A DNA stretch of 62,159 nucleotides, counting the filler. It is 5 parts of 5 records of this genome, joined end to end, with 100 filler letters (N's around TTAATTAATTAA, not from the genome) between each part and the next. Parts side by side here need not be neighbours in the genome. Positions count along the whole stretch, not along the records: positions 1 to 10,721 come from SRR31156797_3640; 4 more parts are not named here. The stretch is one strand, 5' to 3'. Shown here one piece after another: positions 1-28,396 of the stretch. The translations under genes and the position numbers were made by a program. The notes beneath the pieces are model-generated. The model had not been told where the DNA came from. It searched no databases and saw only the letters and a program-made list of their open reading frames with translations. Position 1 is the first letter of the stretch, and each line of letters begins with the position of its first letter.

Positions 1-1
1 A

Positions 2-577
2 AGAGGAATGTATGGATATACAGGAACTTACAAGGGAAAAAGAGTCTCAGTACAGGGTACCGGAATGGGTGTTCCATCAGTTTCAATATATGCTACGGAA
101 CTGATTAAAGATTATGGCGTAAAGAACTTAATCAGAGTAGGGACGTCAGGATCTTTCCTGGAAAGTGTAAAAATAAGAGACGTAGTTGTAGCTATGTCGG
201 CCTCTACAACATCGGGAGTTAATAAACTTAGATTTAATGGAGCGGATTATGCACCGACTGCTAACTTTGAACTGTTTATGAAAGCTATTAAAGCAGCGGA
301 GGAGAAAAAGATTTCTGTTAAAGCGGGAAATGTTTTAACTAATGATGAGTTTTACAGTGATGTATTTGATGACTATAAAAAATGGGCCTCTTTCGGAGTG
401 CTTTGTGCTGAGATGGAAACAGCCGGTTTATATACAGTTGCGGCAAAATACGGAGTTAAAGCATTGACACTACTAACAATATCAGATTCATTAGTAACAG
501 GAGAAGAAACGAATTCTCAAGAGAGACAAACTACATTTAGTTCAATGATAGAGGTAGCGCTAGAGTGTGTAGAGTAA
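2..577 (+). CDS. deoD: purine-nucleoside phosphorylase DeoD-type (5' truncated by window)
   Basis: [37 protein letters not shown] motifs of hexameric PNP; frame open from base 2. Confidence 0.95.
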
Positions 578-583
578 ATTAGT

Positions 584-627
584 AAAATACAAAAAGTCTG
601 TGATGAAACACAGGCTTTTTGTATTTT
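584..627 (+). terminator. intrinsic terminator after deoD
   Basis: aaaatacaaaaagtctgtg / cacaggctttttgtatttt inverted repeat. Confidence 0.8.
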
Positions 628-694
628 ATTAATAATTTGATTACTGCAAAAGTGGGTGCTATAATTATTAATAATATGTTTTTACGGAGTACTA

Positions 695-868
695 ATAATC
701 GACATTTCAAAATTAAATAATAATAGAGAAATAAAAATAATTATTGGTGCATCATCACAAGATTATGATGGCTTTATCTATAGATCAAAGAGATTTGACC
801 ATAGAAATAAAGATGGAAAGTTGGGTTTTGTTTCACTAATCATTGATATAAGAAAAAACAAAAAATAG
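695..868 (+). pseudogene. internally deleted remnant, probably of a class I SAM-dependent methyltransferase-like gene
   Basis: Open frame with no ATG reads ..REIKIIIGASSQDYDGFIYRSKRFDHRNKDGKLGFVSLIIDIRKNKK*; GGAG precedes an ATA codon at 695; resembles the joined N- and C-termini of a longer protein. Confidence 0.55.
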
Positions 869-879
869 GAGTATAGAAT

Positions 880-1695
880 ATGAAAATCATAATTGATGAA
901 CTTGAAATTAACTATGAAATAAGTGGTGAGGGAAAAGCTGTAATTATGCTTCACGGTTATTCCTGTGATTACAGATCACTTTATAATGCTACGGAAGGAG
1001 TACCTGCACTAAAAGAGGGGTATAAAAAAATCTATCTGGATCTCCCGGGAATGGGGAAATCTGATAGCGCACGTTGGATAAAAAATGCAGATATTATGCT
1101 AGAGATAGTTATAAAATTTATAGATAAAGTTATTCCAAATGAGAATTTTTTACTTGCCGGTTATTCATATGGTGGGTATTTGGCAAGGGGATTAGTGAGC
1201 AAACTGCCTGAAAGGGTAGAGGGATTATTAGCAATATGCCCGGTGATTATTCCTGAAAATTCTGATAGAGAATTACCTGATGAAAAAATAATTTTTAAAG
1301 ATGAAGAAATAAACAGAAGATTAAAAACTGAATTTTTTATAGATTTCAGTTCAGCACTAGTTATTCAAAATAAAAATAACTTGGAAAGATTGAGAGAAGA
1401 GATAGTATATGGAGTTAAAGAAGCTGATAGAGAGTTTATTAAACACTATAGAGCTAGTGGTTATGGATTTTCATTTGAAATAGATGTGGAAATATTTGAC
1501 AAAGCAAGTTTATTTTTAATGGGCAGACAGGACTCTGTAGTAGGTTATAAAGATGCTATGAATATTTTAGATTATTATCCCAGAGCAAGTTATGTAGTTT
1601 TAGACTGTGCCGGACATAACCTGCAAATAGAGCAAGAGAAGCAGTTTAATTTGTTGGTTAGTAACTGGGTAATAAGAGTAGAAGAATTAATCTGA
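880..1695 (+). CDS. alpha/beta fold hydrolase
   Basis: HG oxyanion motif, DLPGMGKS, nucleophile elbow GYSYG, catalytic D (QDSVV) and H (AGHN); RBS aggag. Confidence 0.9.
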   Translation: MKIIIDELEINYEISGEGKAVIMLHGYSCDYRSLYNATEGVPALKEGYKKIYLDLPGMGKSDSARWIKNADIMLEIVIKFIDKVIPNENFLLAGYSYGGYLARGLVSKLPERVEGLLAICPVIIPENSDRELPDEKIIFKDEEINRRLKTEFFIDFSSALVIQNKNNLERLREEIVYGVKEADREFIKHYRASGYGFSFEIDVEIFDKASLFLMGRQDSVVGYKDAMNILDYYPRASYVVLDCAGHNLQIEQEKQFNLLVSNWVIRVEELI

Positions 1696-1779
1696 AATAA
1701 AAAAGAGGAAATTAACTACTTATAGTTTATATGTTTAGTAAAGGGGTAATAATTTCTTGTTAAAAAGGGAGGCACAAAA

Positions 1780-2160
1780 ATGAAGCCATCAAAATTTTTA
1801 ATTGCAGATGATGCACTTTATCAAAGAAAAGAATTAAAAAAGATTTTGGAAGGTGAAGGTTATGAAGTTATAGCTGAAGCTATAGATGGTAATGATGCAA
1901 TTGAAAAGTATAAAGAACATTCACCTGATTTCGTATTTATGGATTTAGTAATGCCTGGAAGAGATGGGGTATCGGCAGTAAGAAAAATCATAGAGTATGA
2001 TTCAAATGCAAATATTATTATATTAAGTGCAGTAGGCCAAAAGAAAACTATATTTGAAGCAATTGAAGCAGGAGCTTTGAATTATTTATTAAAACCATAT
2101 AAACCATCAGATATTCTTGGAATAATAAATTTAACATCAGGATATCTGGAAGCAGAATAA
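1780..2160 (+). CDS. single-domain response regulator, CheY-like
   Basis: ADD, MDLVMP phosphoacceptor, LSA, LKP; no output domain; RBS ggaggc. Confidence 0.9.
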   Translation: MKPSKFLIADDALYQRKELKKILEGEGYEVIAEAIDGNDAIEKYKEHSPDFVFMDLVMPGRDGVSAVRKIIEYDSNANIIILSAVGQKKTIFEAIEAGALNYLLKPYKPSDILGIINLTSGYLEAE

Positions 2161-2168
2161 TTAAATAT

Positions 2169-2206
2169 ACAACCGTTGAGATAAATTTTACTCAACGGTT
2201 GTTTTA
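2169..2206 (+). terminator. intrinsic terminator
   Basis: acaaccgttgag / ctcaacggttgt 12-bp stem followed by T run. Confidence 0.8.
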
Positions 2207-2277
2207 TTATGGGAAATTAGAGTATCATAATAGTATGAATGTGTTTGAAAATAGAAATTATTATAGGAGTGAGTTAA

Positions 2278-3006
2278 ATGAAGAAACTGAAATTAGTACT
2301 TATTTTTTTAATTTTTAATTTTGTAGCTTTTAGTGAATCTCTTTTATTTAATACAATTAATAACTTTGCACCATTTATCTGGGAAGAAGATGGCGAAGTG
2401 AAGGGATTAGATGTTGATATTGTAGAAGAAATTGAGAAGAGAACAGGCATAGAGATCGAGATGGAGTTTTTACCATGGAAAAGAGTGCTTCTAAATATTG
2501 AAGCGGGAGTGGTTGACGGTGGTTTTGCAGGATTCAGAACATCTGAAAGAGAGCAGTATTCTGTTTTTTCTGATTATCCCATGCATTACTCGAGTTACTC
2601 TATTGTCAAAAATATTGACAGCTCAGTAAAGATAGATAATTCCATGGGAAAAACAATAGGTATGAGACTGGGATTTGTTATTAGTGATGAGTTTACGAAT
2701 TGGGTTGAGGAGAATAAAATAAGAATAGAAGAATCCAGAAGTGAGGAACAAAATTTAAGAAAATTAATAACTAATAGAGTTGATTTCATTATATCAAATG
2801 ATATAACGACACTATATACTGCGAAGCTGATGGGAGTAATAAATAGATTAGCAGTAGAAAAAAGTTTTGTGGAAAAGAAAGGCTCTTATATTATGTTATC
2901 AAAAAAATCTCCTAAGCTACACCTTTTACCAAAATTAAATAAAGTATTAAAAGAGATTCACGAAGATGGAACATATGAGGAGATTATCAGAAAATATACT
3001 GAATAA
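2278..3006 (+). CDS. extracellular solute-binding protein family 3
   Basis: signal peptide, FAPF..GLDVDI..LPWKR, C-terminal LKEIHEDGTYEEIIRKY. Confidence 0.85.
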   Translation: MKKLKLVLIFLIFNFVAFSESLLFNTINNFAPFIWEEDGEVKGLDVDIVEEIEKRTGIEIEMEFLPWKRVLLNIEAGVVDGGFAGFRTSEREQYSVFSDYPMHYSSYSIVKNIDSSVKIDNSMGKTIGMRLGFVISDEFTNWVEENKIRIEESRSEEQNLRKLITNRVDFIISNDITTLYTAKLMGVINRLAVEKSFVEKKGSYIMLSKKSPKLHLLPKLNKVLKEIHEDGTYEEIIRKYTE

Positions 3007-3010
3007 AATA

Positions 3011-3055
3011 AATATTAAATCCCGGCTTAAAGAATATAAGTCGGGATTTGATATT
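3011..3055. terminator. bidirectional terminator between convergent genes
   Basis: aatattaaatcccggctta / taagtcgggatttgatatt. Confidence 0.75.
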
Positions 3056-3075
3056 ATATAAATAATTAAGCTTTT

Positions 3076-4041
3076 TTATTGAAAAACGGCACCTTTTTTA
3101 TAAATTGGTGGTATAACAATTTTGAACTCGTCTAATTGTTTTAGATTAAAATACAGTTTTGCCTCATTATCTGTTTTAGGAAGGATATTTTTCGGAGTTT
3201 TATTGTTTTTTAGAATATCGACAGCAATCATTCCCGCAAGTTTACCATGAGTATAACCTTGAATAGTCATTGCTCCTACAGCTCCTTCATCATGGACAGT
3301 ATAATCATGATTGGTAAAAATAGGAATTTTTGAATTTTCGTTAGTCCATTCTACGACATCAGTCTCCTTGATACCCACTCCGTTTTTATCTTTTATTGAA
3401 AAAAAACCAGACAAGATTATAAAACCATACTCATTATTTAACTTCAAGATTGTTTCTTTCCAGTTTTCCCAATTATTAATAACTTTATGATCGACTCTTA
3501 AATCATCTATCCAAATACTTTCTTGATTATCAAAAATAGAAGCGTCAATTCTAGATGAAGTTGTATTTTCAAATAATATTAAGCTTTTTTTTACGTTGGG
3601 CATTATTCTTGCGAGAACTTTATTATAAAGAAGTATAGGTGGTCGCTCCAAAACACCTGTTATATTAGTATAATTAGAATTAAAGTATTTTCTAGGGTTA
3701 TTATTTATTCCGTAATATACAACGGGGGTGCTAGTTTTTCCAAATTTATTACCGAGTAATTTTAGAGCGTTATCATCTCCTAGCATAACTAAATCAGGTT
3801 TTTCTTTTAGATATATTTCCCAAGCCTGATTTGCTTTTTTTTGAAATTGCTCAGGCGGTATTCGTTTTGTATTCATGTAAAATATATTTATATCAAAATC
3901 GTTATTTAATTCGTCTAATATTCCGTTTATACATAAATTAGCCCATTCATACTCCTGACTGTAACTGGAGATAATGAGAACAGATTTTGCATAGCTAATA
4001 TTCGATATGAGGATAAAAAATATTAAAAAAAGCTTTTTCAT
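3076..4041 (-). CDS. ABC-type substrate-binding / periplasmic sensor-like protein
   Basis: signal peptide; VLIISSY..EW, YMNTKR, GDDNAL, GINN, TGVLE, GAVG motifs. Confidence 0.75.
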   Translation of the reverse strand: MKKLFLIFFILISNISYAKSVLIISSYSQEYEWANLCINGILDELNNDFDINIFYMNTKRIPPEQFQKKANQAWEIYLKEKPDLVMLGDDNALKLLGNKFGKTSTPVVYYGINNNPRKYFNSNYTNITGVLERPPILLYNKVLARIMPNVKKSLILFENTTSSRIDASIFDNQESIWIDDLRVDHKVINNWENWKETILKLNNEYGFIILSGFFSIKDKNGVGIKETDVVEWTNENSKIPIFTNHDYTVHDEGAVGAMTIQGYTHGKLAGMIAVDILKNNKTPKNILPKTDNEAKLYFNLKQLDEFKIVIPPIYKKGAVFQ

Positions 4042-4131
4042 GTAATCACCCCTTTGTATTAAAATAAGATTGTCTACTTATATATTACCTCAATTATAAC
4101 CTATTATAAAAGTATTTTTTATTTTCGAAAT

Positions 4132-4260
4132 TTATATAAAAGAAATAAGGATATAGTTCAAGAACTAGATAATGAGTTGAAACGAATGAAACAAAGTGGG
4201 GAATTAGAATTATTAAAGAAAGAAGCAGAAAGAATTGTTTTTGAAAAACATATGGATTAA
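4132..4260 (+). pseudogene. 3' remnant of a family 3 solute-binding protein gene
   Basis: LYKRNKDIVQELDNELKRMKQSGELELLKKEAERIVFEKHMD* matches the SBP3 C-terminal helix pattern; no start codon between the in-frame stop at 4060-4062 and this segment. Confidence 0.55.
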
Positions 4261-4280
4261 GTGTTTTCTAAACGATATAA

Positions 4281-4324
4281 ATTAAAGAAGCTCAGCTGTA
4301 TATTATCAGCTGAGCTTCTTTAAT
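4281..4324. terminator. bidirectional terminator
   Basis: attaaagaagctcagctg / cagctgagcttctttaat perfect 18-bp stem. Confidence 0.8.
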
Positions 4325-5069
4325 TTATATATTTATTAATGATTTTGTCATAAGTTCCATTTTCTTTTAACTCATTAATTTTTTTAGCAAATTTTTCAGC
4401 TAATTCTTTCCGGTCTCTTTTAACGGAAAAAGCTAAATATAATGGGCTTTTTTCTAGTATTGGTCTTAATATTTCGATCTGCTCTGACATATTTTCTTTG
4501 TTTGCAAAAGCGCTTATAACCAATCTATCTCCAATGAATAAATCTGTTCTATTAGCAATTAACATCTTTAATGCAATTAATTCATTTCTGGCTTCCTCTT
4601 TTTTCAAATAAGTAGCAGAATCGAATTCAGTTCCATAACTATATTGAGAAACGGTTCCTATTGAATATTGTGTTAATTCTTTTAAATCTCCTGAATAGGA
4701 AATAGGATTATTTATTTTTTTAAAAAATGAAACTTCCTCATAGGATAATATATTTCCTTCATTGAATATTAAAAACTCTTCTCTTTTTGTTGTTTTAAAT
4801 AGTGGGAAAAAAGCATCTGCTTCACCTCGTTCCATGAGAGAGAGACATCTTTTCCAAGGGTAGTTTCTATAATATTTAATCTTAATATTTAACTCCTTGG
4901 CAGCTGCATTAACTAAATCAACACATATTCCGGTTTCAATCCCATTTTCGTCATAAAAATAGTATGGAGGATAACCGGTGCTAAGCAGTATTTCAATTTT
5001 TTCAGATGAAAAACTAAGTGTAGAGAAAAGAAGAAATGTAAACATTAGTTTTATTACTTTCGAGATCAT
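4320..5069 (-). CDS. extracellular solute-binding protein family 3
   Basis: signal peptide, YPPY..GICVDL..YPWKR, ELKENGTYDKIINKY. Confidence 0.85.
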   Translation of the reverse strand: MISKVIKLMFTFLLFSTLSFSSEKIEILLSTGYPPYYFYDENGIETGICVDLVNAAAKELNIKIKYYRNYPWKRCLSLMERGEADAFFPLFKTTKREEFLIFNEGNILSYEEVSFFKKINNPISYSGDLKELTQYSIGTVSQYSYGTEFDSATYLKKEEARNELIALKMLIANRTDLFIGDRLVISAFANKENMSEQIEILRPILEKSPLYLAFSVKRDRKELAEKFAKKINELKENGTYDKIINKYIN

Positions 5070-5187
5070 TATACTCCCCCTGTATATTTATTATAGAGAT
5101 ACTCAATAAATATTTTACCATAAATTATCACACAAATATACAAAAGTTAATGTTAGATATCTTTTTATTTTCAAAAACTAAAAAAAC

Positions 5188-5265
5188 GGCTAACTGAAAA
5201 GTCCACTTTTAATTAAATAAATTTCCAAACTCAATTTATTAATTATTGGTACTTTTCAGTCAGCC
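5188..5265 (-). terminator. long imperfect hairpin, probable terminator of the nitroreductase transcript
   Basis: ggctaactgaaaagt / acttttcagtcagcc with AT-rich inner arms; T run follows on the minus strand. Confidence 0.6.
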
Positions 5266-5274
5266 AGAGTAATT

Positions 5275-5838
5275 CTATAACCAAGTAACGTTTGATTCTT
5301 TCTTTGGAACGGATTCAGGAAATTCACCCTTAGGATATCCTAAGACGATCGGACCAAATATCTCTTCGTCGTCCTGTAAACCAAGAGTATCTTTCATCTC
5401 TTCATCTAAGCATATATTACCAAACTCTACCCAGCAGCTACCGATATCAAATGATCTCGCGGCAAGCATGATGTTTTGGCATACCATAGGGCAATCTTTA
5501 GCATAGGCTAATATTTTTTTCCCTACTACAAAAATAATCGTATCAGCAGAATAATAGATTGAATCTTTGTGTAGTTCATCGATTGATTTTCTGACTTCTT
5601 TTACCGCATCCCCCATTTGATCCAGTATAGCTTTATACATTGGTTTCGCATGCTCTGCAAGTTTCAACTTTAACCCATTGTCTCTTACAACTACGAATCT
5701 CCAAGGTTGTATATTTGCCCCGGATGGAGCAGAATTTCCAGCGGAAATTATCTCATCTAATATCTCTTTACTAATCTCTTTTTCGCTAAAAAATCTAACT
5801 GATCTTCTGTTTTTAATATTGCTGATTACTTCATTCAT
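5275..5838 (-). CDS. nitroreductase family protein
   Basis: RRSVR, APSGANIQPWRF, QNIMLAA..GSCW, LGYP. Confidence 0.92.
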   Translation of the reverse strand: MNEVISNIKNRRSVRFFSEKEISKEILDEIISAGNSAPSGANIQPWRFVVVRDNGLKLKLAEHAKPMYKAILDQMGDAVKEVRKSIDELHKDSIYYSADTIIFVVGKKILAYAKDCPMVCQNIMLAARSFDIGSCWVEFGNICLDEEMKDTLGLQDDEEIFGPIVLGYPKGEFPESVPKKESNVTWL

Positions 5839-5868
5839 ATAGTTTCCCCCTTTAAATTAACATCTAAT

Positions 5869-6747
5869 CTATTCAACAGGCACATAGATATCAAACTCTA
5901 TAGTGTCGCTAAAACCAAATGGTTCTATTTTATATGCTTGTAAATTTATTCCGGTTTTTGATAATTCATACTCTGAGTTAGGCAGATACTCTTTGAAAAT
6001 ATAATTAAAAGTATCGACGACCATTCCTATTTTTCCTCTGTGAGTGAAAGCAAGATACTTTAATGGTGGTAAAATACGCAGATGCATTTCATCAGGTATA
6101 GAGTCAGCAGTACTTACTTCGATACATGCAGTATGTAAGATTCCGTCTCCATCAATATCTTCCATATCAGTTTCACAGATACCGTATTTTATTTGTTTAT
6201 TTACTACATGATCTATTTCCTTTATTCTTTGATTAAATATATTATTATGGAAATTGGCAATAGTAAATTTTTCAGCATTTTCCTGAAATCCAGTTTCCAG
6301 AGTCATTCCAATTAATTTCATTTCCTCTTTAATAATTAGTTTTGGTTGAATTCCGTCTTTTCTTTTTTTACTCATCATTCCCAGAACACTAACCTTATCA
6401 TTTAATCTAATTTTTGATTGAAGTTTTCTGTATTTACCGGGAGTTATACCAAAATATTTGCTAAAAGCTCTGGTGAATACTTCCTGTGATTCAAAGTGAT
6501 TATCAACAGCTATTTCCAAGATATTGCTATTTGTTGCATTAAGTTGGACAACAGCTCTGGCAAGTCGTCTCTTTCTGATATATCTCATGACAGGCTCGCC
6601 GACATACATTGAGAATAAGCGATGGTAATAATATTTGGATAAATATGCGATCTCTGCAAGTTCATCGAGAGAGATTTTTTTATCTAAATTTTCCTCTATA
6701 TAATCTATGGTTTTCTGAATTCGTTGAAAATAGTCCATTTTTCTCAC
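5869..6747 (-). CDS. AraC-family regulator with C-terminal GyrI-like effector domain
   Basis: N-terminal double HTH (LDELA..SKYYYHRLF..FESQEVFTRAF..TPGKYR), C-terminal YLAFTHRG..IYVPV. Confidence 0.9.
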   Translation of the reverse strand: MRKMDYFQRIQKTIDYIEENLDKKISLDELAEIAYLSKYYYHRLFSMYVGEPVMRYIRKRRLARAVVQLNATNSNILEIAVDNHFESQEVFTRAFSKYFGITPGKYRKLQSKIRLNDKVSVLGMMSKKRKDGIQPKLIIKEEMKLIGMTLETGFQENAEKFTIANFHNNIFNQRIKEIDHVVNKQIKYGICETDMEDIDGDGILHTACIEVSTADSIPDEMHLRILPPLKYLAFTHRGKIGMVVDTFNYIFKEYLPNSEYELSKTGINLQAYKIEPFGFSDTIEFDIYVPVE

Positions 6748-6836
6748 CAGCCTTTTATAGTTAACTATAAATAATTATAGCATGATATAAAATTTGGTTT
6801 TTGATGTTTTTTGCAGAATCTTATTGTATATATAAA

Positions 6837-6866
6837 AACAAGACAGAGATTTTTCTCTGTCTTGTT
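6837..6866 (-). terminator. intrinsic terminator after the chemoreceptor gene
   Basis: aacaagacagaga / tctctgtcttgtt. Confidence 0.75.
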
Positions 6867-6892
6867 AAAAAATAATATTTTCATTTCAATAA

Positions 6893-8881
6893 TTAAGCTT
6901 CAATTTGTAATCTTATTTCAGATATTTTTTGTTCATTTTCATCCATTTCATCTTTTTGCTTTGAATTGTCTTTCGCAAGTGAGTTGATCTCATGAGTTAA
7001 TTCCTGAAGAGTTGCATTGATCTCTTCTGTAGAAGCGTAGATAATTTCTGCATCTTCTAGATTCAGTTCAGATGTTGAAACTATTTTACCAAAGATACTC
7101 TCTAAGTTTGATATTTCATTGTGTATCCATTCAACGAAAGGATTTATCTTTTCTACTTCATTTTTAGTGTTTTCAGCAAGTTTTCTAACTTCTTCAGCAA
7201 CTACCGCAAAACCTTTACCTGATTCGCCGGCTCTTGCAGCTTCTATAGCTGCATTTAGTGCAAGTAGGTTTGTTTGCTCAGATATTCCCTGTATAGTAGT
7301 AGAGATTGAGTTTAATTCTTGAGCTCTGCCTTTTATTGTAGAAATATTCTTTGATGTTTTATCTAAAATATCGTTAGATGTTTTTATTTCAGAGACCATA
7401 CTCTCTACTTTTCTAATAACTGTAGAGTTTGAATCGGATAAATTATTAGCCTCAGAAGAAAGTTCATCTGTTAAACTGGATGTTGAAGCTATGTAGTCTT
7501 GTGTATTATTGGAGAAATCCTGAATTACATCAAATGATTGTTTAAGTAACTCCATTTTTTCCAATACTTCTTCATGCTTACCATAGGCAACTTTTTTGGC
7601 ATACTCTCTACAAGATTCGGGAACATTTGAACCAAGTACAATAGCTAAAGCGGCTGATTCACATGATCCGAATCCACATGCAGGACAATCATATGATTTT
7701 TCCGAATTTGTTGATTTTAATAGAGCAGTATATCCTTCATTTATATTATTTTTGGCTTGATTTACTTTGTATTGATAGTCTTTATTATGATTAGCATAAG
7801 ATACTGTATAATCATCTATGTCTAGTTTTTTATATAAAGTTTTTACAATCTCCTTAGGAGATTTTTTTCTGAATAGATTTCTTTTTTCACCTTTAATTTG
7901 CTTAGATTTTTCATTCAGGGAATAATCCATCTCGTCCATAGATGGTAAGTTGTGCATATAATCACCGTGGTATTCTGTTCCTGTTCCTACAGAACAACCC
8001 TCTGTACAATTTAAAATATCAATTAATAATGGCAATTTAGTATTTTGGTGATTTATCTCTTTTAGATAGTCTTGAGCAACTTTTGGTCCTTCGATTCTTT
8101 TGATATGGAACTCTTTTCCGAATACCTCTTCTACTGATACCATCAAACCTCCGGGAGTAGGGTACCAGAATCCAACTAATGATTCCGGAGAATCAAAATC
8201 TGAAGGAGAACTATTTCTAGAGTCTTTTCTATATGCCTCCATAAGCGTTTTGAAGGATACATTACCTTTGATGACTCCATGTGCCTGAAATTCTAATCCT
8301 TTGGAAACACAAGGGGCGATTCCCCAGATATTTCTTATTCCATGGTTATTCTGCATATATACAGCTGTACAATGCATAGGAGACCCAATCGGACTTAAAT
8401 ATTTTTGTAGATTAGGATAATATCTTTCAATCGAATATACAATACTTCTACAAGGCTGAGCTATAACGGTTTCTAGTCCTAACTCTTTCACAGCTTTAAC
8501 ATATAAAACAGTAGTGATATCAGCTCCAAAACTAACATCCCATATATATTTGATTCCTTTACTTCTTAACCAACCAAAAACTTTTTTGTATTCATTTGGA
8601 TAATTAAGTAACATAGCAGGTGCTACTACAACTGCTTCAACTCTTCCTGCATTTAATTCTGATAAAAACATTTCTGAATCATCTTGAAAATATCTTGAAT
8701 CTTGCTTACATGCTTTAATACATTCCCCGCAAGCGATGCAGTTTTCAGAACTAGCGGAAACCTTGATATCTCCGTTTTCATTCTTGTAAATTTTGTTTGC
8801 GAAATCTAATGGACAGACTTCAACACAAGCATTACATCCGATACAATTTTCAAGCTCGGTACATATCATATCTTTTCTCAT
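6893..8881 (-). CDS. soluble chemoreceptor: 2x[4Fe-4S] + [FeFe]-hydrogenase H-domain + FeS motif + MCP signalling domain
   Basis: [12 protein letters not shown] and [79 protein letters not shown]; start placed at 8881 after aggag. Confidence 0.9.
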
Positions 8882-9207
8882 AAATACACTCCTTTTCATC
8901 GTAAATCTAACATACGAATATTGTAATATTACACTAAGACAATTTTACATCTTGTATAATATATCATATTTAGAAAGCATTTCCTAAGTAAAATTATTGT
9001 TTCTGTATCCTGTTTTAATTAAGTTTTTTTACTTTTCTGAGGTTTTTTTATAAAGTGTATAGAGATGTTACTTTTATAAAATACTTAAATTAATTTTTAT
9101 ATGAAAAATAACGCGCGTTTACAAATGAAAAATTATTTTGTTACGCTATTTTAAATACAAATTATACACAAAGTGAATTAATGGTGAAAAAATGAGAGAG
9201 GATTGGT

Positions 9208-9251
9208 GAGATAAAAAAAGGATATGCCTGCGCATATCCTTTTCTTATCTC
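9208..9251 (-). terminator. intrinsic terminator
   Basis: aaaaggatatgc / gcatatcctttt, extended by gagata/tatctc. Confidence 0.75.
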
Positions 9252-9259
9252 TAAGTCTA

Positions 9260-10009
9260 TCAATATTTCAAATATTTATCAGTTATTTTCTGCCATTCAC
9301 CTGATTTTTTTAATTCCTGAATAATTCGTTTAAGATCATCTATAATATACTGAGGAGTAGATTTTGAAAATACCATCCAATGTTGATATGTTCTTAATTT
9401 TAAAGGATGAACTTTGAATTGATTCTCATAGGGAGATGTTCTTACTTTATATAATAAGCCCAAACTGTGATATGCGAAAAAATCTCCTCTTTCCAAAAGA
9501 AGTTTTTCAAGGTTTGCATCAGGTGTTTTTGCAGAATCCTCCAGCTCAAGATTAAAAGTTTCTTTTAAATAAACATTTGATCCTGCTCCGAAAACAGCAA
9601 GTATTCTTGAATTTCTAATTTTTTCTAAATCTTCAAAAGATTCTATATTATCACGATAATCTTTTCTTGAGATCAGTATAGTAGAAACATCATATAATGG
9701 TTCACCGAAACGAAATAATTTCTCTCTTTTATCATTTCTAGCCCAACCTAGATGTACATTAGTATCTCCTTTTTCCATATTTAATTGAATTCTTCTTGTA
9801 GGCATAAACTCACTTGGATAATCAAATTTATAGTCAGAATTTTTTTCTATCAATCTAATCAGTTCAACACAGAGTCCCCCAAATAAACCATTTGAATATC
9901 TTGTATACTTTGGAGTAGTGTCTTGAAACTCTGTTTTTAATGTTATTTTAGCAGATAAGTTAGTATTAATAATTAAAAGTGTTAGAAAAAAATAAATCAG
10001 TTTTTTCAT
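9260..10009 (-). CDS. extracellular solute-binding protein family 3
   Basis: signal peptide MKKLIYFF.., PKY..GLCVEL, ELKKSGEWQKITDKY; RBS ggagggg before ATG 10009. Confidence 0.8.
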   Translation of the reverse strand: MKKLIYFFLTLLIINTNLSAKITLKTEFQDTTPKYTRYSNGLFGGLCVELIRLIEKNSDYKFDYPSEFMPTRRIQLNMEKGDTNVHLGWARNDKREKLFRFGEPLYDVSTILISRKDYRDNIESFEDLEKIRNSRILAVFGAGSNVYLKETFNLELEDSAKTPDANLEKLLLERGDFFAYHSLGLLYKVRTSPYENQFKVHPLKLRTYQHWMVFSKSTPQYIIDDLKRIIQELKKSGEWQKITDKYLKY

Positions 10010-10170
10010 AATAACCCCTCCTATTTGACCGACACAATACAATACTCTATAAATATCATACTATATTATCAGGATAAAACCTTCTATTTAAATAATGGAA
10101 TTTTTACTAATTATAGTTTAAACTTAATAAAAGATAGAACATAATTTATCTAGTAGTAAAGGAGATTTTT

Positions 10171-10707
10171 ATGAGTAATTATATATTTGAATCAGCCAGA
10201 CTGGGATTTAGGAAATGGCAAGAAGAGGATAAAGAGAAGTTTGCAAAGATGAATGCCAGTAAAGAAGTAATGAAATATTTTCCGAAGTGTTTAACACGAA
10301 GTGAATCAGACGCCTTTATTGAAAGAATTAATACGCATTTTGAAAATTATGGATATAGTCTGTGGGCGGTAGAGGTAAAAGCAACAAAAGAGTTTATCGG
10401 TCATCTTGGATTTTATACAGCTAATTTTGATGCAGAATTTACACCCTGTGTTGAGATAGGATGGAGGCTGGATAATAGATATTGGAATAAAGGTTATGCA
10501 ACAGAGGGAGCAAAGAGGTGTCTTGAGTATGCTTTTAATGATTTGGGTTTAAGTGTGATATACTCATTCACAGCGGAACTAAATAAACCATCTGAAAATG
10601 TAATGAAAAAAATAGGGATGAAGCATATCAGTAATTTTAGTCATCCTAATCTCAAGGATGATGATCCCTTAAAACCACATGTACTGTATAGAATATATAA
10701 ATTTTAG
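10171..10707 (+). CDS. GNAT N-acetyltransferase, RimJ/RimL-like
   Basis: EIGWRL..YWNKGYATEGA..N.PSENVMKKIGM. Confidence 0.9.
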   Translation: MSNYIFESARLGFRKWQEEDKEKFAKMNASKEVMKYFPKCLTRSESDAFIERINTHFENYGYSLWAVEVKATKEFIGHLGFYTANFDAEFTPCVEIGWRLDNRYWNKGYATEGAKRCLEYAFNDLGLSVIYSFTAELNKPSENVMKKIGMKHISNFSHPNLKDDDPLKPHVLYRIYKF

Positions 10708-10721
10708 TTTCTTTTTGATAC

Positions 10722-10821
10722 NNNNNNNNNNNNNNNNNNNNNNNNNNNNNNNNNNNNNNNNNNNNTTAATTAATTAANNNNNNNNNNNNNNNNNNNNNNN
10801 NNNNNNNNNNNNNNNNNNNNN
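10722..10821. other. artificial contig spacer
   Basis: 44 N + TTAATTAATTAA (stops in all six frames) + 44 N. Confidence 0.99.
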
Positions 10822-10842
10822 ACCAAGCTGCTCCACCCCGCG
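10822..10842 (-). tRNA. 5' fragment of initiator tRNA-Met (truncated by contig end)
   Basis: reverse complement CGCGGGGTGGAGCAGCTTGGT is the characteristic tRNA-fMet 5' acceptor strand plus D-arm start; anticodon not visible. Confidence 0.8.
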
Positions 10843-10930
10843 TCACTGTGAAAAGGGTTCTACAGACGGGGCCGCTTCCTGTCAACAGCTATTTACAAAT
10901 TATTTAAATTTTCTTATCTCATCTCTCGAT

Positions 10931-11662
10931 ATGACAAACCAACATGAACTCTCTCTCGTAATCCCTGTTTACAACGAACAGGACAATTTACGAAAACTAA
11001 TGCAGGAAATTGATTCGGCCCTTGAACCGACCAATATCCCATATGAAGTTATATTTGTAGATGACGGCAGCAAGGACAACAGCCTTGCCGTTCTCAAAGA
11101 TATTTCCTCTAACTACCATAAGGCACGCTACATTTCCTTTGCGGAAAACCGGGGACAGTCCGCGGCTTTCTGTGCAGGATTCGATGAAGCCCGAGCACCG
11201 CGTGTTGCCACCATGGACGCTGACCTGCAGAACGACCCTGCAGACCTTCCGGCTATGTACGATCTATACAATGAAGGGCACACCATGACCATCGGCTGGC
11301 GTCAAAAGCGCAAGGATGTCTGGATCAAAAGGATCGGTTCCAAGATCGCCAACGCCATCCGCAACAGACTGACCAACGAGACTGTGCAGGATACCGGATG
11401 CTCTCTTAAAATAATGGATACCACCATGGTTCGTAATATCCCCCGCTTCAACGGCATGCACCGTTTCCTGCCCACACTTATGAAAATGCAGGGTGCTTCC
11501 GTTGCAGAAATGAAAGTCAACCACCGCCCCCGCTTCGAAGGTGAATCAAAATACGGAACCCTCGACCGAGCCATTGCCGGAGGCTATGACCTGCTGGGCG
11601 TGCGCTGGCTGCTGGGTCGTCATTTCTCATACAGTGTAAAAGAACGCAGCGACGACAAATAA
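10931..11662 (+). CDS. glycosyltransferase family 2 (polyprenol-phosphate glycosyltransferase, DPM1/ArnC-like)
   Basis: SLVIPVYNE, VDDGSKD, NRGQS, MDADLQNDP, DTGC, HRFLP, HRPRFEGESKY. Confidence 0.92.
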   Translation: MTNQHELSLVIPVYNEQDNLRKLMQEIDSALEPTNIPYEVIFVDDGSKDNSLAVLKDISSNYHKARYISFAENRGQSAAFCAGFDEARAPRVATMDADLQNDPADLPAMYDLYNEGHTMTIGWRQKRKDVWIKRIGSKIANAIRNRLTNETVQDTGCSLKIMDTTMVRNIPRFNGMHRFLPTLMKMQGASVAEMKVNHRPRFEGESKYGTLDRAIAGGYDLLGVRWLLGRHFSYSVKERSDDK

Positions 11663-17543: not shown

Positions 17544-19355
17544 CTACTCTTCACTACGCAATTCTTCAACCAGATTAAGAAGTTCTTGAACTTCGGTGGA
17601 AAGTGAACGGGTTCCTTCCGCAGCCAGCTGGCTGTTATGGGCATTTTCCTCAGTCATGGTATCAATTTCACCGACACTGCGGTTGATCTCGTCCGAAGTA
17701 GCAGACTGCTCTTCAGCAGCAGTTGCAATAGAACGAACCTGATCAGCCGAGTTCTTTGCAAGCTCAACTATTTCATCCAGCATATCACCGGAGGAACGTG
17801 AAAGGTCGGTTGCATTTGCCACTGCATCAACGGTGGAATCCATACCCTTTACATTTTCACGGGTAAGAGTCTGGATGCCATTGATACTGTTTTCAACCTC
17901 TTCGGTTGCACCGATAGTCTTTTCAGCAAGCTTACGAACTTCATCTGCAACGACAGCGAATCCTCTACCAGCATCACCGGCACGGGCAGCCTCAATAGCT
18001 GCATTTAATGCCAGCAAATTAGTCTGGTCAGCAATATCATTAATTACACCTAGCACATTACCAATTCCCACAGCCTGAGTATCCAGATGCTCCATGGATT
18101 CCTTAAGCTTTGCAGTACGTTCCTGAATATTACCCATAGCCGAGATTACTTCCTGCACTACCCGTGCTCCGTCACTAGCCTTTTCCATGGACATAGCAGA
18201 GCTTTCATTAGTTTCAGTGGCATTCTTTGCAACTTCAAGAACAGTCGCATTCATCTCTTCCATAGCAGTAGCAGTTTCAGTCACACGCTGCTTCTGGAAC
18301 TCGCTTCCGCGCTGGATTTCTTCAGCATTACTGGAAACCTCTGCGGTAATGCTTGATACACGCTCAACAACAGTCTGCAACTTATCTGCTGCCGCAAGCA
18401 TACCTTCCTTCTTGGCTCCCTCAGCCCTGATCTGGGCCTCGCGAGCTTCGGCAGCTGCTTCTTCGGCAATACGTGCCTGTTCTTGAGATTCGGCTTCCTT
18501 AGCCTTGATACTTTCAAGGTTGGCAGACAAAGTCTCTACCATGGTATTCAAAGCAGTCTGCAAAGTGGATATTTCATTGCGTCCTTCAGGGTTAAGGGAA
18601 ACATCAAGATTTCCCTCAGCAACTGAAGTAGCGGCCTCGGTGGAAGCAGTCAGCGGATTTACAATTGAACGGATCAGATAAATGGAAAGCGGCAAAACCA
18701 TCAACAACAAAACAGCTCCAGCACCAAAAACAATCTTCATGGTAAAAGAATTGGCACTTTCATGCATCAAAGTATCCATCTTACCGGTTTCTACTTCGAT
18801 ATTATCGATGTAGACTCCGGTACCGATCCACATATCAGTGCCGGGAATCATCATAGCGTAACTGATCTTGGGTTGTACCCCGGCTCCGGGCTTATCAAAA
18901 AAGTACTTAACAAAGCCGCCGCCAGCATGGGCAACCTTGTTGATTTCCTGGATCACGAGCAATCCATTCTTATCCTTGAGCCCAGCCAGATCCTTACCTT
19001 GCAAGGACTTCTTGGGCGGCATGACCATATTTACAGTTCCCTTATAGACAAAGAAATAACCTGAATTATCATCCTCAAAACGTACCGGATCAAGGGCCGC
19101 ACGGATGAATTCAAGTCTTTCATGTTCATCGGTTATACCCTTTATTTCCACACCAATGGAGCGGGCCATGGCAAGAGTTGCCACCTTGATCTTATCCTTT
19201 TGGTCTTGAAACATTATTTCTTCAGTATTGCTCACACCGAGATTGGTAACATCCCGAATGACTCCCATGAAAAATAGTCCCGTTACAATCAGGAAAAGCA
19301 CCATCAAAGCCAGTAGCAAGAAAAACCTTGCACCTATCGATAGATTCTTCAACAT
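17544..19355 (-). CDS. methyl-accepting chemotaxis protein, single Cache sensor + HAMP
   Basis: 2 TM helices, [49 protein letters not shown]. Confidence 0.95.
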
Positions 19356-20041: not shown

Positions 20042-21847
20042 CTAACTTCTAAGTTCTTCCACCAAAGCCACCAATGCATCAACCTCACGGGAAAGATCAG
20101 TTGCAGCTTCGGCTGCGAGCATACTATTGCGAGCATTATCCTCAGTCATGGAATCAATCTCAGAGATACTGCGATTGATCTCATCAGATGTCGCGGACTG
20201 CTCTTCAGCAGCTGTGGCGATAGACTGAACCTGCCCTGCGGCGTTAGCGGCCAGATTTACAATTTCAGAAAGGACTTCGCCGGAAGCTCGGGAATGATCA
20301 GTAGCCCCGCCAATGGCCTCAACTGCGGTACGCATGCCTTCAATATTCTGCTTAGCAAGGCCCTGAATGGAAGTAATAGACTTATCGACTTCATCAGTAG
20401 CACCGATGGTCTTTTCAGCCAGCTTACGCACTTCGTCTGCAACAACAGCAAATCCTCTACCAGCATCCCCCGCACGTGCGGCCTCAATGGCTGCGTTCAA
20501 CGCCAGCAAGTTGGTCTGGTCCGCAATATCATTAATTACGCCCATGACGGTACCGATCTCAATGGACTGGGTATTGAGCTGATCCATAAGCCGTTCCAGT
20601 TCGTTAGTCTGATCCTGAATACCAACCATAGATTCAATGGTTCCCAGAACAACACTTTGTCCTTCAGTAGCTTTATCTCGGGTCTGTTCAGTATCTTCGT
20701 TGGTCTCGGTGGCGTTCTTTGCAACTTCCAGAACGGTGGCATTCATTTCTTCCATGGCTGTCGCAGTCTCAGCAATACGTTCTTTCTGGAACTCACTGCC
20801 GTTCATGATTTCGTTGGTAGACTTTTCAACATCGCGGGAAATTTTTACTATATTATTTAGAACTGTTTCAAGCTTGCTGGCAGCAGCAAGCATACCTTCC
20901 CGCTTAGCCCCTTCCGCTTCCTTACGGGCTTCTTCGGCTTCGGCTGCCATCTTCTGGGCCACGCGAGCCTGTTCAGCGGACTCCGCTTCCTTACGTTTAA
21001 TGTCAGTAAGGTTTTCATCAAGAGTTGTGGTCATGGTATTAATGGCCCGCTGCAACGTGGAAATCTCACTTCTACCGGTCGGATTAAGGGTAACTGTCAG
21101 ATCACCCTCAGATACATTAACTGCAGCCTCTGTCGCATCCTGAACAGGACGTACAATGGAGCGAACAATGACAATACAGAGCGGAGTGAGCGCGAAAAGA
21201 AGCAAAGCAAGCATGATCAATACAATCTTAGTTGTATCGGCTTTAACGGCGTCATCAATGATTGTTCCGACACGCAATTTTTCCGCCTCAATGTTATCAA
21301 TATAAACACCGGTACCAATCCACATATCAGTGCCGGGAATCATGGTAGCATACCCGAGTTTGGGCTGAAGTCCCTTTCCAGGCTTATCAAACACATATTG
21401 TACAAACCCACCGCCATTACGCGCGACGGAATCAAGTTCCCTAACAAAGTAAACACCATTTTTATCTTTAGCACCGCTGAGGTCTTTACCTTGTAAAGAT
21501 TTTTTGGGAGGCAAAGCCGCAACGACTGTCCCCTTATAAACAAAGAAGTATCCTGATCTATCATCTTCAAATCTAAAACTATCGATGGACTTACGAATGA
21601 ATTCAATCTTAGCTTTGTTACCGTCTACAGACCTTAACTGAACCCCCAGCGATTCAGCAGCAGCACGGGTGGCAACCTCTACCTTATCCTTCTGACCCTG
21701 CAACATAACATTTTCGATCTCAGTAAGACCGATAGTCTCAACCTGTCTGATTTCTGCAAGAAACATTGCCCCGCAGATAATCAAAAACACTAAGACTGAA
21801 GCCAGCAAAAGGACAAAACGTCCGCCGATTGACAGATTTTTCAACAT
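20042..21847 (-). CDS. methyl-accepting chemotaxis protein, single Cache sensor + HAMP (paralogue of 17544-19355)
   Basis: same architecture; start placed at ATG 21847 (MLKNLSIG) after ggagag. Confidence 0.95.
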
Positions 21848-22006
21848 ACATCTCTCCAATTTTTTTATTAAAAACTGCTACGAAGACCCCACACGTTGCA
21901 GTTTAACATTCACAATACACACATATCGAAAGCATAACAACAAAAGTTACCACTTTAAACGTTATACTCGAAGTATAAGAAACATTCCTGCTCTGAATTT
22001 TGCAAC

Positions 22007-22131: not shown

Positions 22132-22168
22132 CACTGTCCGCGACCGGCAAACAAAGTCGCGGACAGTG
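22132..22168. other. GC-rich hairpin without a U tail just downstream of the lactate dehydrogenase gene
   Basis: cactgtccgcgac / gtcgcggacagtg perfect 13-bp stem. Confidence 0.7.
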
Positions 22169-22183
22169 AGCGTGTGTCATGTT

Positions 22184-24343
22184 TTATTTTCTGCGATCAG
22201 CCATGTATTCTGCAATGTGCTTGACTTCAAGGTCAGCACCCTGCTTCTTGGCACCACCGCGGATCTGCATTACGCAACCGGGGCAGTCGGTCAGCAATAC
22301 TTTAGCACCGCTTTCCTTCGCATTATTGATTTTCTTCTCAAGCAACTGCTCGGAAATCTTGGGGAACTTCACAGAGTAGGTTCCACCGAAACCGCAACAG
22401 ACTTCTTCTTCAGCACTTTCCTTGTAATCCAGTCCGGCTTTAGCCATCAGTTCGCGAGGAGCGGCTTTAACATCCAGACCGCGACAGAGGTGGCAGGGAG
22501 CGTGGTAAGTTACCGCATCACCAGCGGAATCAAGGAAGTCTTCTTTTTCAACACCGAGTACATCATTCATGAAGGAGCTATAGTCGATAACCTTGTCAGC
22601 AAATTCCTGTACACGAGTTGCGTACTGGGGATCTTTGCCGAGCATCTTCATGTAGTTATGCTTCAGGTGGGAAGCGCAGGAAGCACACATGGTCAGAATG
22701 TAATCGCAGTCAGTTCCTTCGAAAGCTTCCATGTTCTGGATTGCAACGTCCCTTGCGGCAGTCACTTCACCCATCATCTGCAGCGGCAGACCGCAGCAGG
22801 ACTGATCCATAGGGAATTCGAGGTTAACATCCTTATTACGCATGCTTTCCACGGTAGCAACGGACTGTTCGGGATATACGAAGTCCTGCACACAACCGGA
22901 GAAAAGCGCAACCTTGTGCTTGGGAGCTGCAACCTTTGCAGGCTGAACCTTAGCCCACATGTCACGGAAGGGAACTTCAGCAACGGTAGGCAGTGCCCTG
23001 AAATCATGATCAGGCATGAAGATCATGGGCAGATGACGCATAAAGCCGTCTTTAGCTTTCACAGGCTTCTGAGCAGTTTTAGCAATGCGCAGGAACTTGT
23101 GGAAGAGTTTGCGGTTCTTCATCATTTTCGCGAGGAAGGAGGAATACATGGGATGTCCCTCTTCTTCCAGAATGCGGGCCTGAATGTCTTTGATCAGACC
23201 GGGCAGGTCAATTCCACCTGCACAGATTTCCTTACATGCTCCACAATTGATGCAGTTCTGAACAAGGTTCTTAGCCTTCTCAGTACCGTGGTAGAAGTAG
23301 GTAAGAATGAGGCCGATAGCCCCGATATAGATATGGCCCATTTTGTGGCCGCCGACCATACGGTAGACAGGACAAACGTTGGCGCAAGCGCCACAGCGTA
23401 CGCAACGATGAACTTGAGAGAACACCGGGTCCTTTGCGAGAGCGCGTCTTCCATTGTCCAAAAACACGAAGTGCACTTTCTTCCTGTCATCCTCAGCCGC
23501 AGCACACTCGTTGGACCCGGTGATCCAGGTAACATAAGAGGTGATTGCCTGCCCGGTAGCGTTACGAGGCAGTGCTTTCAGTACGCGCAGAGCGTCATGC
23601 AGTTTGGGGGTCAGTTTATCAAGCCCCATGAGAGCTACATGAACTCTGGGAAGTGTGGTTGCCAGACGGGCGTTACCTTCGTTAGTAACAAGACCGATGG
23701 AACCGGTTTCGGCGATAGCAAAGTTACCGCCGGAGATGCCCATATCGGCATCAACAAAAGCCTGACGAAGCTCGCGGCGAGCAACCTTAACGAGAGCCTG
23801 AACATCATCACCCTGCTTCTGTCCAGTCACGTCAGAAAAGAGATCGCTGACCTGATGACGGGAGAGGTGAATTGCAGGCATAACCATGTGGGAAGGTCCT
23901 TCCTTACGCATCTGGATGATCCACTCACCGAGGTCGGTTTCGACTACTTTGAGGTTCAGGTCATCTTCAAGATGGTGGTTAAGCAGAGTTTCTTCCGCTG
24001 TCATGGACTTGGATTTAACGATGGTCTTGCAGTTTTCTGCCACAGCGATGCGACCAATGATTTCATTGGCTTCTTTAGCATCTTTGGCAAGGTGAACTAC
24101 TGCACCGCGCTTTTCTGCTTCTTCTTTGAACTTAGCGAAAAGTTCATCAAGTCTGGATGCAGCAGCATCTTTAGCATCGGCTATTTCACGGATCAGAGCT
24201 TTTTCATCCATGTCCTTGAACGCATTGGCACGGCTGCCGCGGTAAGCCACAGCAAATTTGTCCATTGCAGTTCTAAGAAAATCGTTATCAAGGGATTCCC
24301 TGATCTCTTTCCTGTATTCTTTAAGATTCTTAGCGTCCTGCAT
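22184..24343 (-). CDS. L-lactate dehydrogenase large FeS subunit (LUD/LutB domain fused to CCG domains; LldH/Ldh1b-like)
   Basis: KSKSM, ETDLGE..PSHMVMPAIH, TNEGN, CVRCGACANVCPVY, CINCGACKEIC, CCG motifs, YHAPCH. Confidence 0.92.
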   Translation of the reverse strand: MQDAKNLKEYRKEIRESLDNDFLRTAMDKFAVAYRGSRANAFKDMDEKALIREIADAKDAAASRLDELFAKFKEEAEKRGAVVHLAKDAKEANEIIGRIAVAENCKTIVKSKSMTAEETLLNHHLEDDLNLKVVETDLGEWIIQMRKEGPSHMVMPAIHLSRHQVSDLFSDVTGQKQGDDVQALVKVARRELRQAFVDADMGISGGNFAIAETGSIGLVTNEGNARLATTLPRVHVALMGLDKLTPKLHDALRVLKALPRNATGQAITSYVTWITGSNECAAAEDDRKKVHFVFLDNGRRALAKDPVFSQVHRCVRCGACANVCPVYRMVGGHKMGHIYIGAIGLILTYFYHGTEKAKNLVQNCINCGACKEICAGGIDLPGLIKDIQARILEEEGHPMYSSFLAKMMKNRKLFHKFLRIAKTAQKPVKAKDGFMRHLPMIFMPDHDFRALPTVAEVPFRDMWAKVQPAKVAAPKHKVALFSGCVQDFVYPEQSVATVESMRNKDVNLEFPMDQSCCGLPLQMMGEVTAARDVAIQNMEAFEGTDCDYILTMCASCASHLKHNYMKMLGKDPQYATRVQEFADKVIDYSSFMNDVLGVEKEDFLDSAGDAVTYHAPCHLCRGLDVKAAPRELMAKAGLDYKESAEEEVCCGFGGTYSVKFPKISEQLLEKKINNAKESGAKVLLTDCPGCVMQIRGGAKKQGADLEVKHIAEYMADRRK

Positions 24344-24345
24344 TA

Positions 24346-24429
24346 TTAGTCCTCCAGAAGAAGAATATGAAGTTCAAGGGGACCGTGTACGCCGATGGCG
24401 AGCACACGCTCAATATCGGCAGTACGGCT
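24346..24429 (-). CDS. LutC/LldG-like lactate utilisation protein, C-terminal fragment
   Basis: SRTADIERVLAIGVHGPLELHILLLED*, immediately upstream of the large subunit. Confidence 0.9.
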   Translation of the reverse strand, partial: SRTADIERVLAIGVHGPLELHILLLED

Positions 24430-24529
24430 NNNNNNNNNNNNNNNNNNNNNNNNNNNNNNNNNNNNNNNNNNNNTTAATTAATTAANNNNNNNNNNNNNNN
24501 NNNNNNNNNNNNNNNNNNNNNNNNNNNNN
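24430..24529. other. artificial contig spacer
   Basis: 44 N + TTAATTAATTAA + 44 N. Confidence 0.99.
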
Positions 24530-28243: not shown

Positions 28244-28396
28244 AATGGTACTTGCAATTGCCTTTGGTATGATCTAACGTGACTGCATCGCTCAATGGGA
28301 ATCTGTATTTTTCATATCCGTTAAGCGGGTCATATGATTCGACAGGCTGTTATAAAATGAGGTTACCTCGATCTTTAGGAAGGTTCTTACAAATCT

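Follow-up and report, generated by a model that had tools for sequence, protein, structure and literature searches.

A predicted cytoplasmic chemoreceptor with an [FeFe]-hydrogenase-type sensor module and its possible response to H2

Does an [FeFe]-hydrogenase fold joined to a chemoreceptor signalling domain sense H2? The question is raised by one gene in the window analysed here, a stretch of 62,159 nucleotides (nt) made up of five contigs joined by N-run spacers enclosing TTAATTAATTAA. The interval 6893-8881, delimited in an earlier note on this DNA, does correspond to exactly one open reading frame (ORF), but the frame is read from the minus strand, and the plus strand, when translated, is full of stops; the ORF encodes a protein in which a hydrogenase-type sensor part precedes the signalling hairpin of a methyl-accepting chemotaxis protein (MCP). 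On its layout and motifs, this protein is assigned to the cytoplasmic chemoreceptors of the kind that HydDB calls group C2. An H2-responsive chemoreceptor, or one that weighs H2 against redox poise, would be the most likely reading, with slightly better than an even chance of being right; it is favoured because of the conserved diiron pocket, the lost proton exit, the behaviour of the sensory-type relatives TmHydS and TamHydS, and the modular outputs of the sensor.

Domain architecture and H-cluster pocket

The N-terminal part of the protein matches the Pfam Fer4 dicluster at residues 9-61 and is followed by the H-domain, a third cysteine motif and the signalling hairpin (Table 1). The third motif overlaps a match to PF04060 FeS at residues 397-424 which, with 19.2 bits, stays under the cut-off of 23 in the window protein and is over threshold in relatives; the MCPsignal domain (PF00015) is found at residues 479-656 with 103 bits (E 1.8e-29, cut-off 34.6). 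The NCBIfam hydrogenase models score far under their cut-offs (96 against 450 bits; TIGR02512, 68.5 against 406), which points to a distant relation to the catalytic enzymes and not to membership among them, and the match to NCBIfam NF041847 is confined to the MCP part. The AlphaFold2 (AF2) model, computed from an alignment of 80 sequences, has a mean predicted local distance difference test score of 87.6 and a predicted template modelling score of 0.70, the sensor part being mostly above 90 in the former. No membrane helix was found in the AF2 model or in the hydropathy scan of the 662-residue protein, whose highest 19-residue Kyte-Doolittle mean, 1.36, is too low for one. In the model, an unbroken helix runs from residue 425 to 550, turns at a tip near G551-G552 and returns from 552 to 661; C424, the last cluster Cys, immediately precedes the signalling helix starting at 425, and in the model the third cluster site passes to the signalling coiled coil with neither a HAMP domain nor a linker in between. 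In a Foldseek search against the PDB, every match listed at E <= 1e-12 is an [FeFe]-hydrogenase; 8a6t_A ranks first (E 9.6e-17), with CbA5H, TmHydABC, DdH and CpI after it, over approximately 430-460 aligned columns and at 16-20% identity. The earlier note had described a cytoplasmic protein lacking a transmembrane helix, with two ferredoxin motifs, an H-domain, an MCP signalling hairpin and an extra Cys motif; hydropathy and AF2 agree with the first point, the Pfam matches to Fer4, Fe_hyd_lg_C and MCPsignal bear out the domains, and the extra motif has the exact spacing Cx2Cx4Cx16C.

The residues of the pocket were mapped through phmmer alignments to solved CpI chains and are given in CpI numbering. 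The map places C144, C191, C292 and C296, together with K194, on the four H-cluster cysteines and the P2 lysine of CpI, in agreement with the earlier description of these residues as kept in variant motifs, and Pro143 on the proton-relay position C299, as expected from the loss of the proton-transfer Cys that had also been proposed. CpI A230, P231, S323 and P324 are retained, and Ala189 occupies the M353 position of the P2-equivalent motif. Of the proton-path residues, E279 lies opposite a gap, E282 is matched by Leu or by a gap, and R286 by Ala130; the features by which group A is tested, that is, the relay Cys of TSCCP and the E279/E282/R286 path, are thus not found in the window protein. 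On this map and the predicted structure, the protein is shown to keep all the residues needed to hold an H-cluster and to miss the group A proton exit.

Conservation of the module, its outputs and its link to chemotaxis

A word-indexed search yielded 367 relatives, and the best 120 of these were aligned with the window protein (121 sequences, 32-55% full-length identity). Among the relatives listed, the best full-length identity to the window protein is 55%, or 65% over the sensor part alone, and nearly all 120 share the same architecture with a length of 630-650 residues. The equivalents of C300, C355, C499, C503, K358, E361, S323 and P324 are present in 121/121 sequences, as are the four cysteines of the C-terminal motif, Asp at the E495 position and Leu at the M497 position; the equivalents of A230 and P231 are kept in 120/121, with one gap, Pro at the C299 position in 119/121, and the eight F-domain cysteines in 118-120/121. 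Across a broader second set, comprising 48 representatives, the cofactor columns show no variation either.

Of 111 alignment columns with a conservation of 90% or more, five have a different residue in the window protein (H60Q, A62S, V110I, S189A and E248V), against a family median of two departures per sequence and an upper quartile of three; eleven sequences exceed its five. At the M353 position, Ser is found in 120/121 sequences, the window protein alone having Ala189 (codon GCC, 8315-8317), and position 248 is Glu in 115/120 relatives and Val248 in the window (8138-8140); both codons are one base away from that of the family residue. Glu248 is taken here to lie near pocket residues in the sequence. 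Overall, the window protein reads as somewhat atypical and not as degenerate.

The sensor part is also found with outputs other than the MCP hairpin. When residues 1-442 served as the query of an exhaustive HMMER search, 478 cluster representatives of 434-1693 residues were retrieved at E <= 1e-30, and Pfam was run on one in three of the 144 new ids P0154-P0297 (48 sequences, six previously known ids being excluded). Fe_hyd_lg_C was detected in 48/48 of these sampled representatives, together with MCPsignal in 21, HisKA plus HATPase_c in 16, a receiver (Response_reg) in 13, PAS_9 in six, GGDEF in four, SpoIIE in two, and EAL and STAS in one each. In a quickly built maximum-likelihood tree with 57 rows (40 MCP forms, sampled one in three, seven special forms and ten other H-domain ORFs), the sensor module, including the window protein, falls in one clade of 47 rows on a long stem, with a Shimodaira-Hasegawa-like approximate likelihood-ratio test (SH-aLRT) support of 100, apart from the group A-like and B-like ORFs. 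Within this clade, a kinase-fused pair (P0123 and P0128; 705 residues, 37% identical to the window sensor) and a GGDEF plus HD-GYP fusion (P0030; 787 residues, 58% identical to the window sensor) nest among the MCP-fused rows. One input module swapped across every main type of bacterial output is the hallmark of a sensory domain. The division of group C in HydDB into kinase-linked, chemotactic and phosphatase-linked forms (PMC5037454, in excerpt) fits the output types observed.

The signalling end of the protein is that of a chemoreceptor, with a hairpin tip near-identical to the solved receptors 2ch7 and 6s18 by phmmer and the columns I533-L568 invariant or nearly so in the family alignment; two sites resembling the methylation consensus, found by pattern only, occur at 518 (GRAQELNS) and 616 (ASTEEINA). 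The genomic setting of the relatives was followed in 399 scored genomes of one class, chosen from the genomes of two weak loci matched by the window protein; in 15 of them, a relative of the sensor was detected at E <= 1e-40. CheW-domain proteins or CheA are encoded in 14 of these 15, the exception being an assembly of 1.4 Mb. In G142, a relative of 727 residues lies within a complete che operon on the same strand (L051, G142:C23:4000-16000, 1172-11403), with the order CheY, MCP, sensor-MCP, CheA (with CheW and receiver domains), CheW, CheB, CheR and CheY.

Proposed mechanism, maturases and competing readings

If the protein does respond to H2, the H-domain would be matured by HydEFG, and H2 would be bound and slowly split at the H-cluster; slow escape of the proton would then leave a persistent reduced state, as in group C TmHydS and group D TamHydS. 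Both of these carry an H-cluster, have a slow turnover and stabilise the Hred state; in groups C and D, the proton relay and the group A path are lost, and a C-terminal Cx2Cx4Cx16C motif is present (PMC8163306, in excerpt). The fraction of the reduced state would read out H2 pressure relative to the redox poise at which the N-terminal clusters stand, a conformational change would reach the signalling helix by way of the C-terminal cluster domain, and CheA activity in the receptor array would be altered, and with it the swimming bias, the receptor being adapted by CheR/CheB methylation. The relay to the helix is the weakest part of this mechanism; with the C-terminal cluster of TamHydS staying oxidised under H2, conformational coupling seems likelier than redox coupling, and a direct Cys-to-helix junction, as in the AF2 model, would suit it. 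A more specific version, held tentatively and with somewhat less than an even chance, is that of a true bacterial H2 chemoreceptor in which the reduced state, trapped for want of a proton exit, would be passed on mechanically and not by electron transfer, S189A and E248V making the window copy a variant with a shifted H2 affinity or a different ligand.

The maturation step leads to the question of whether the hosts of the sensor encode the maturases. HydG scores over its cut-off in nine of the 15 sensor-bearing genomes, HydE in the same nine, and HydF in eight, plus one where it is split over two contig ends; the genome of the closest relative, G382, whose sensor is 61% identical, has all three. 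With the family models, HydE, HydF and HydG are all absent from the remaining six (G001, G007, G097, G154, G233 and G360), and the HydG protein of the closest genome, used as the query, gave nothing convincing in five of those six. The same six genomes encode canonical catalytic hydrogenases with the motifs TSCCPGW or TSCSPGW, MPCxxKKxE and MACPGGCxxGGGQ; moreover, a group A hydrogenase is found in 330 of the sampled genomes and HydG in 242/399, leaving at least 88/330 without HydG. The absence of maturases therefore extends to hosts of catalytic hydrogenases, has no particular tie to the sensor and is no decisive guide to which cofactors the sensor carries; this absence may reflect incomplete assemblies. 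Maturase co-occurrence was accordingly rejected as a test of the H-cluster, the host rate being equal to the background and six hosts also having catalytic hydrogenases. As separate observations, G154, one of the hosts with no HydE, HydF or HydG, has nine H-domain ORFs and long contigs, and several high-scoring group A-type ORFs (L027, L028, L029, L037, L008 and L002) have ITSCSPGW for the TSCCPGW of CpI, with Ser in place of the second Cys.

Several findings weigh against an H2-responsive receptor. HydG occurs in 60% of the sensor hosts (9/15) and in 61% of the background (242/399), so the presence of the sensor does not predict that of the maturase. The window protein differs at two near-invariant polar positions, S189A, at the diiron-site position M353, and E248V, and either change may weaken or retune its reactivity. 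CheA with a receiver domain, as in the operon of G142, is a form typical of chemosensory systems with non-flagellar outputs, and that pathway may control something besides flagella. No experimental work on any MCP-linked [FeFe]-hydrogenase was found in the literature searched, which comprised open-access papers and bioRxiv only, in line with the statement of the earlier note that the subgroup has no demonstrated function. Lastly, no reduction of the TamHydS C-terminal cluster takes place under 1 atm H2 (PMC13104023, in excerpt), which makes signalling through the redox state of this cluster, as the simplest form of relay, doubtful.

The alternative that survives best, unlikely as it is, is a receptor for redox or energy taxis, in which the clusters, with or without an H-cluster, would report the ferredoxin or NAD(P)H pool and H2 would act at most indirectly. 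The two-cluster relay domain, for which a pure gas sensor has no obvious need, is kept in 118-120/121 sequences, the sensor does not track the maturases, and the window protein is predicted to be cytoplasmic, as other energy-taxis receptors likewise are. Nevertheless, a redox sensor with FeS clusters only would not need the invariant diiron residues (K358, S323, P324 and the bridging C503, with the family Leu at M497 and Ser at M353), and in the HydS relatives an H-cluster is bound and reaction with H2 occurs (PMC8163306, in excerpt).

A sensor of O2, CO or another small ligand, in which the H-cluster or the FeS clusters would act as a damage or ligand switch steering an anaerobe away from oxidants, is improbable. 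The named hosts of sensor relatives include Sporomusa and Proteinivorax, and these and the other named hosts are anaerobes, which counts in its favour. H-clusters do react with O2 and CO, and TamHydS has a stable O2-derived state, but the sensory-type relatives are reported to be unusually CO-tolerant (PMC8163306, in excerpt). Irreversible damage would be ill suited to a chemotaxis receptor that adapts.

An FeS-only protein of the Nar1 type, with the [4Fe-4S] part alone bound, the [2Fe] subcluster never inserted and the fold serving as a scaffold, appears about as improbable. Nar1/NARF-like proteins are defined by the absence of the [2Fe] subcluster and a relaxed diiron pocket, whereas the diiron-pocket residues are strictly conserved in the 121 sequences, which argues against a relaxed pocket. 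The six genomes without HydE, HydF and HydG, five of them also by the HydG query, speak for it, and group C2 matches were dropped as non-validated hydrogenases in a screen of Clostridium acetogens (PMC9431212, in excerpt); however, the same six genomes carry catalytic hydrogenases that certainly need maturases, and at least 88/330 genomes with group A lack HydG as well. That the gene is decaying, or a copy without function on a stray contig of a metagenome, is very unlikely, since the five departures, against a median of two, and a contig composition foreign to the rest of the record are set against an intact frame of 662 codons with a ribosome-binding site and a terminator, the retention of all cofactor ligands, and eleven other sequences that deviate more.

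Interspecies H2 transfer underlies syntrophy, acetogenesis and gut fermentation, and a cytoplasmic receptor for H2 would account for the way in which motile anaerobes find or avoid sources of the gas. H2 taxis has been shown for a methanogen (PMC3817446, in excerpt), and no description of a bacterial H2 receptor was found in the open-access and bioRxiv literature. For the study of how sensory hydrogenases signal, the family makes a clean test case: its output, CheA activity and swimming bias, is easily measured, and its sensor is joined directly to the signalling helix. The window copy itself adds little, coming from an unplaced metagenomic contig, but the question is not tied to a single gene, and cultured hosts such as Sporomusa species are a better experimental entry.

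The gene on its contig and the closest known systems

An alternative in-frame ATG at 8899 would add six residues to the sensor-MCP; relatives nonetheless align from residue 1 (P0015, 1-443 against query 1-441), and this alignment and the spacing of the ribosome-binding site indicate a product of 662 residues starting at ATG 8881. Promoter-like sites are no commoner than in shuffled sequence, and the one in Table 1 is a candidate only. A second hairpin follows the gene upstream of the sensor gene, which looks monocistronic with its own terminator.

Table 1. Positions of the features of the sensor-MCP gene, its product and its surroundings in the 62,159-nt window
Feature	Positions	Strand	Details and basis
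Sensor-MCP coding sequence, 662 residues	6893-8881	minus	Stop codon 6893-6895; ORF list, translation, Pfam, AF2
Ribosome-binding site AAAGGAG	8889-8895	minus	7 nt before ATG at 8881; read from sequence
Promoter-like candidate TTTTCA-18-TATAAT	9161-9190	minus	In 330-bp AT-rich upstream region; consensus scan
Terminator-like hairpin	6837-6866	minus	Strong; 13-bp stem and T run; 27 nt past the sensor-gene stop codon
F-domain, residues 9-61	8699-8857	minus	CxxCxxCxxxC [4Fe-4S] motifs C13/16/19/23 and C48/51/54/58; Pfam Fer4
H-domain, residues 84-299	7985-8632	minus	Pfam Fe_hyd_lg_C (PF02906), 64.6 bits, E 1.4e-17, cut-off 22.1
P1-equivalent AQPCRS (CpI TSCCPG), residues 141-146	8444-8461	minus	C144 = C300; Pro143 at proton-relay C299
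P2-equivalent APCVSKGLE (CpI MPCTSKKFE), residues 189-197	8291-8317	minus	C191 = C355, K194 = K358, E197 = E361
P3-equivalent (CpI IEVMACHGGC region), residues 290-301	7979-8014	minus	C292 = C499, C296 = C503, Leu290 at M497
C-terminal Cx2Cx4Cx16C [4Fe-4S] motif, residues 399-424	7610-7687	minus	C399/C402/C407/C424; read from sequence
MCP signalling hairpin, residues 425-661	6899-7609	minus	Pfam, AF2 secondary structure, phmmer matches to solved MCP chains
Conserved hairpin tip, residues 533-568	7178-7285	minus	MCP region contacting CheA/CheW; alignment conservation, match to 2ch7 and 6s18
Single-domain response regulator, 126 residues	1780-2160	plus	CheY-like size; 4.7 kb from the sensor gene
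Contig-junction spacer 1	10722-10821	no strand	N runs around TTAATTAATTAA; closes the contig bearing the sensor gene
Remaining junction spacers	24430-24529, 33628-33727, 56831-56930		N runs around TTAATTAATTAA

The GC contents of the five window pieces are 30.6, 47.9, 49.2, 52.4 and 59.6%, and this spread points to a mixed bin or a metagenome record. The contig with the sensor gene (1-10721; 30.6%) is compositionally unlike the four others, so the sequence past 10721 is unusable as gene context. On this 10.7-kb contig, the neighbours of the sensor gene encode solute-binding proteins, a regulator of the AraC/GyrI type, a nitroreductase and a GNAT acetyltransferase, and, apart from the sensor gene, the sole chemotaxis-like component is the single-domain receiver of Table 1. 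Rfam and transfer RNA scans of the contig gave nothing above chance, and the comparison with the locus of the closest relative (L048 of G382) showed only the sensor gene in common. Among the other contigs, that with 47.9% GC carries two Cache-HAMP-MCP chemoreceptor genes on the minus strand (17544-19355 and 20042-21859), the organism of which may differ from that of the sensor gene. Two overlapping open frames, of 727 codons at 22166-24349 on the plus strand and 719 codons at 22184-24343 on the minus strand, were also recorded; for the product of the plus-strand frame, Pfam gave no match at E <= 1e-5. A TPR-sulfotransferase protein adjoining a TolC-like/ABC/HlyD export set (25565-33178) and a RecC-RecB-RecD operon (37625-46885) lie on other contigs; the export set and RecC-RecB-RecD are typical of diderm bacteria, unlike the low-GC sensor contig.

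In HydDB, [FeFe] group C2 was defined in 2016 by Sondergaard, Pedersen and Greening as "chemotactic (putative)", with an H-domain and an MCP domain and a proposed role as H2 sensor (PMC5037454, in excerpt). The MCP-linked subgroup of group C recognised in the earlier note matches this class in layout, and there is no difference in kind between the class and the window protein. The class itself, which recurs in genome surveys after 2016, is therefore not new, and the window protein is a fairly divergent new member of it, with 55% full-length and 65% sensor identity and its unique Ala at the M353 position. Papers on Pelobacter and Syntrophobacter, and the available parts of those on C. thermocellum, were considered as evidence on an MCP-linked hydrogenase and rejected, the terms only co-occurring in them.

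Among the sensory-type relatives, TmHydS from Thermotoga maritima (group C, M2f) shares with the window protein two [4Fe-4S] motifs, an H-domain devoid of the relay and the Cx2Cx4Cx16C motif, followed by a signalling domain, which is a PAS domain in TmHydS and the MCP hairpin in the window protein; the M497 and M353 positions are Ser and Gly in TmHydS and Leu and Ser in the window family, with Ala at M353 in the window protein itself (PMC8163306, in excerpt). TamHydS from Thermoanaerobacter mathranii (group D, M2e) has the same three cofactor-binding parts and, like the window family, Leu and Ser at M497 and M353 (PMC8163306, in excerpt), but it lacks a fused output domain, in contrast to the window protein with its MCP hairpin. 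Group D has an alternative proton path (E252/E289), and the oxidised state in which the C-terminal cluster of TamHydS stays under H2 (PMC13104023, in excerpt) limits any relay model taken over from this protein. The C299 position is Ala in both TmHydS and TamHydS (PMC10407848) and Pro in the window family.

The catalytic enzymes of group A (CpI, DdH and the HydA of HydABC) share the fold, the F-cluster domain, the four H-cluster cysteines and K358 with the window protein, which differs from them by its identity of 16-20%, AQPCR in place of TSCCP, the loss of E279, E282 and R286, and the additional C-terminal cluster and MCP domain. A likeness also exists to soluble chemoreceptors that sense through a cofactor, such as transducers of the Aer2 type, both being cytoplasmic MCPs that read a bound cofactor and not a periplasmic ligand; in the window protein, however, the sensor is of the FeS/H-cluster type instead of a heme-PAS or FAD-PAS domain, and in the AF2 model it joins the signalling helix directly, without a HAMP domain.

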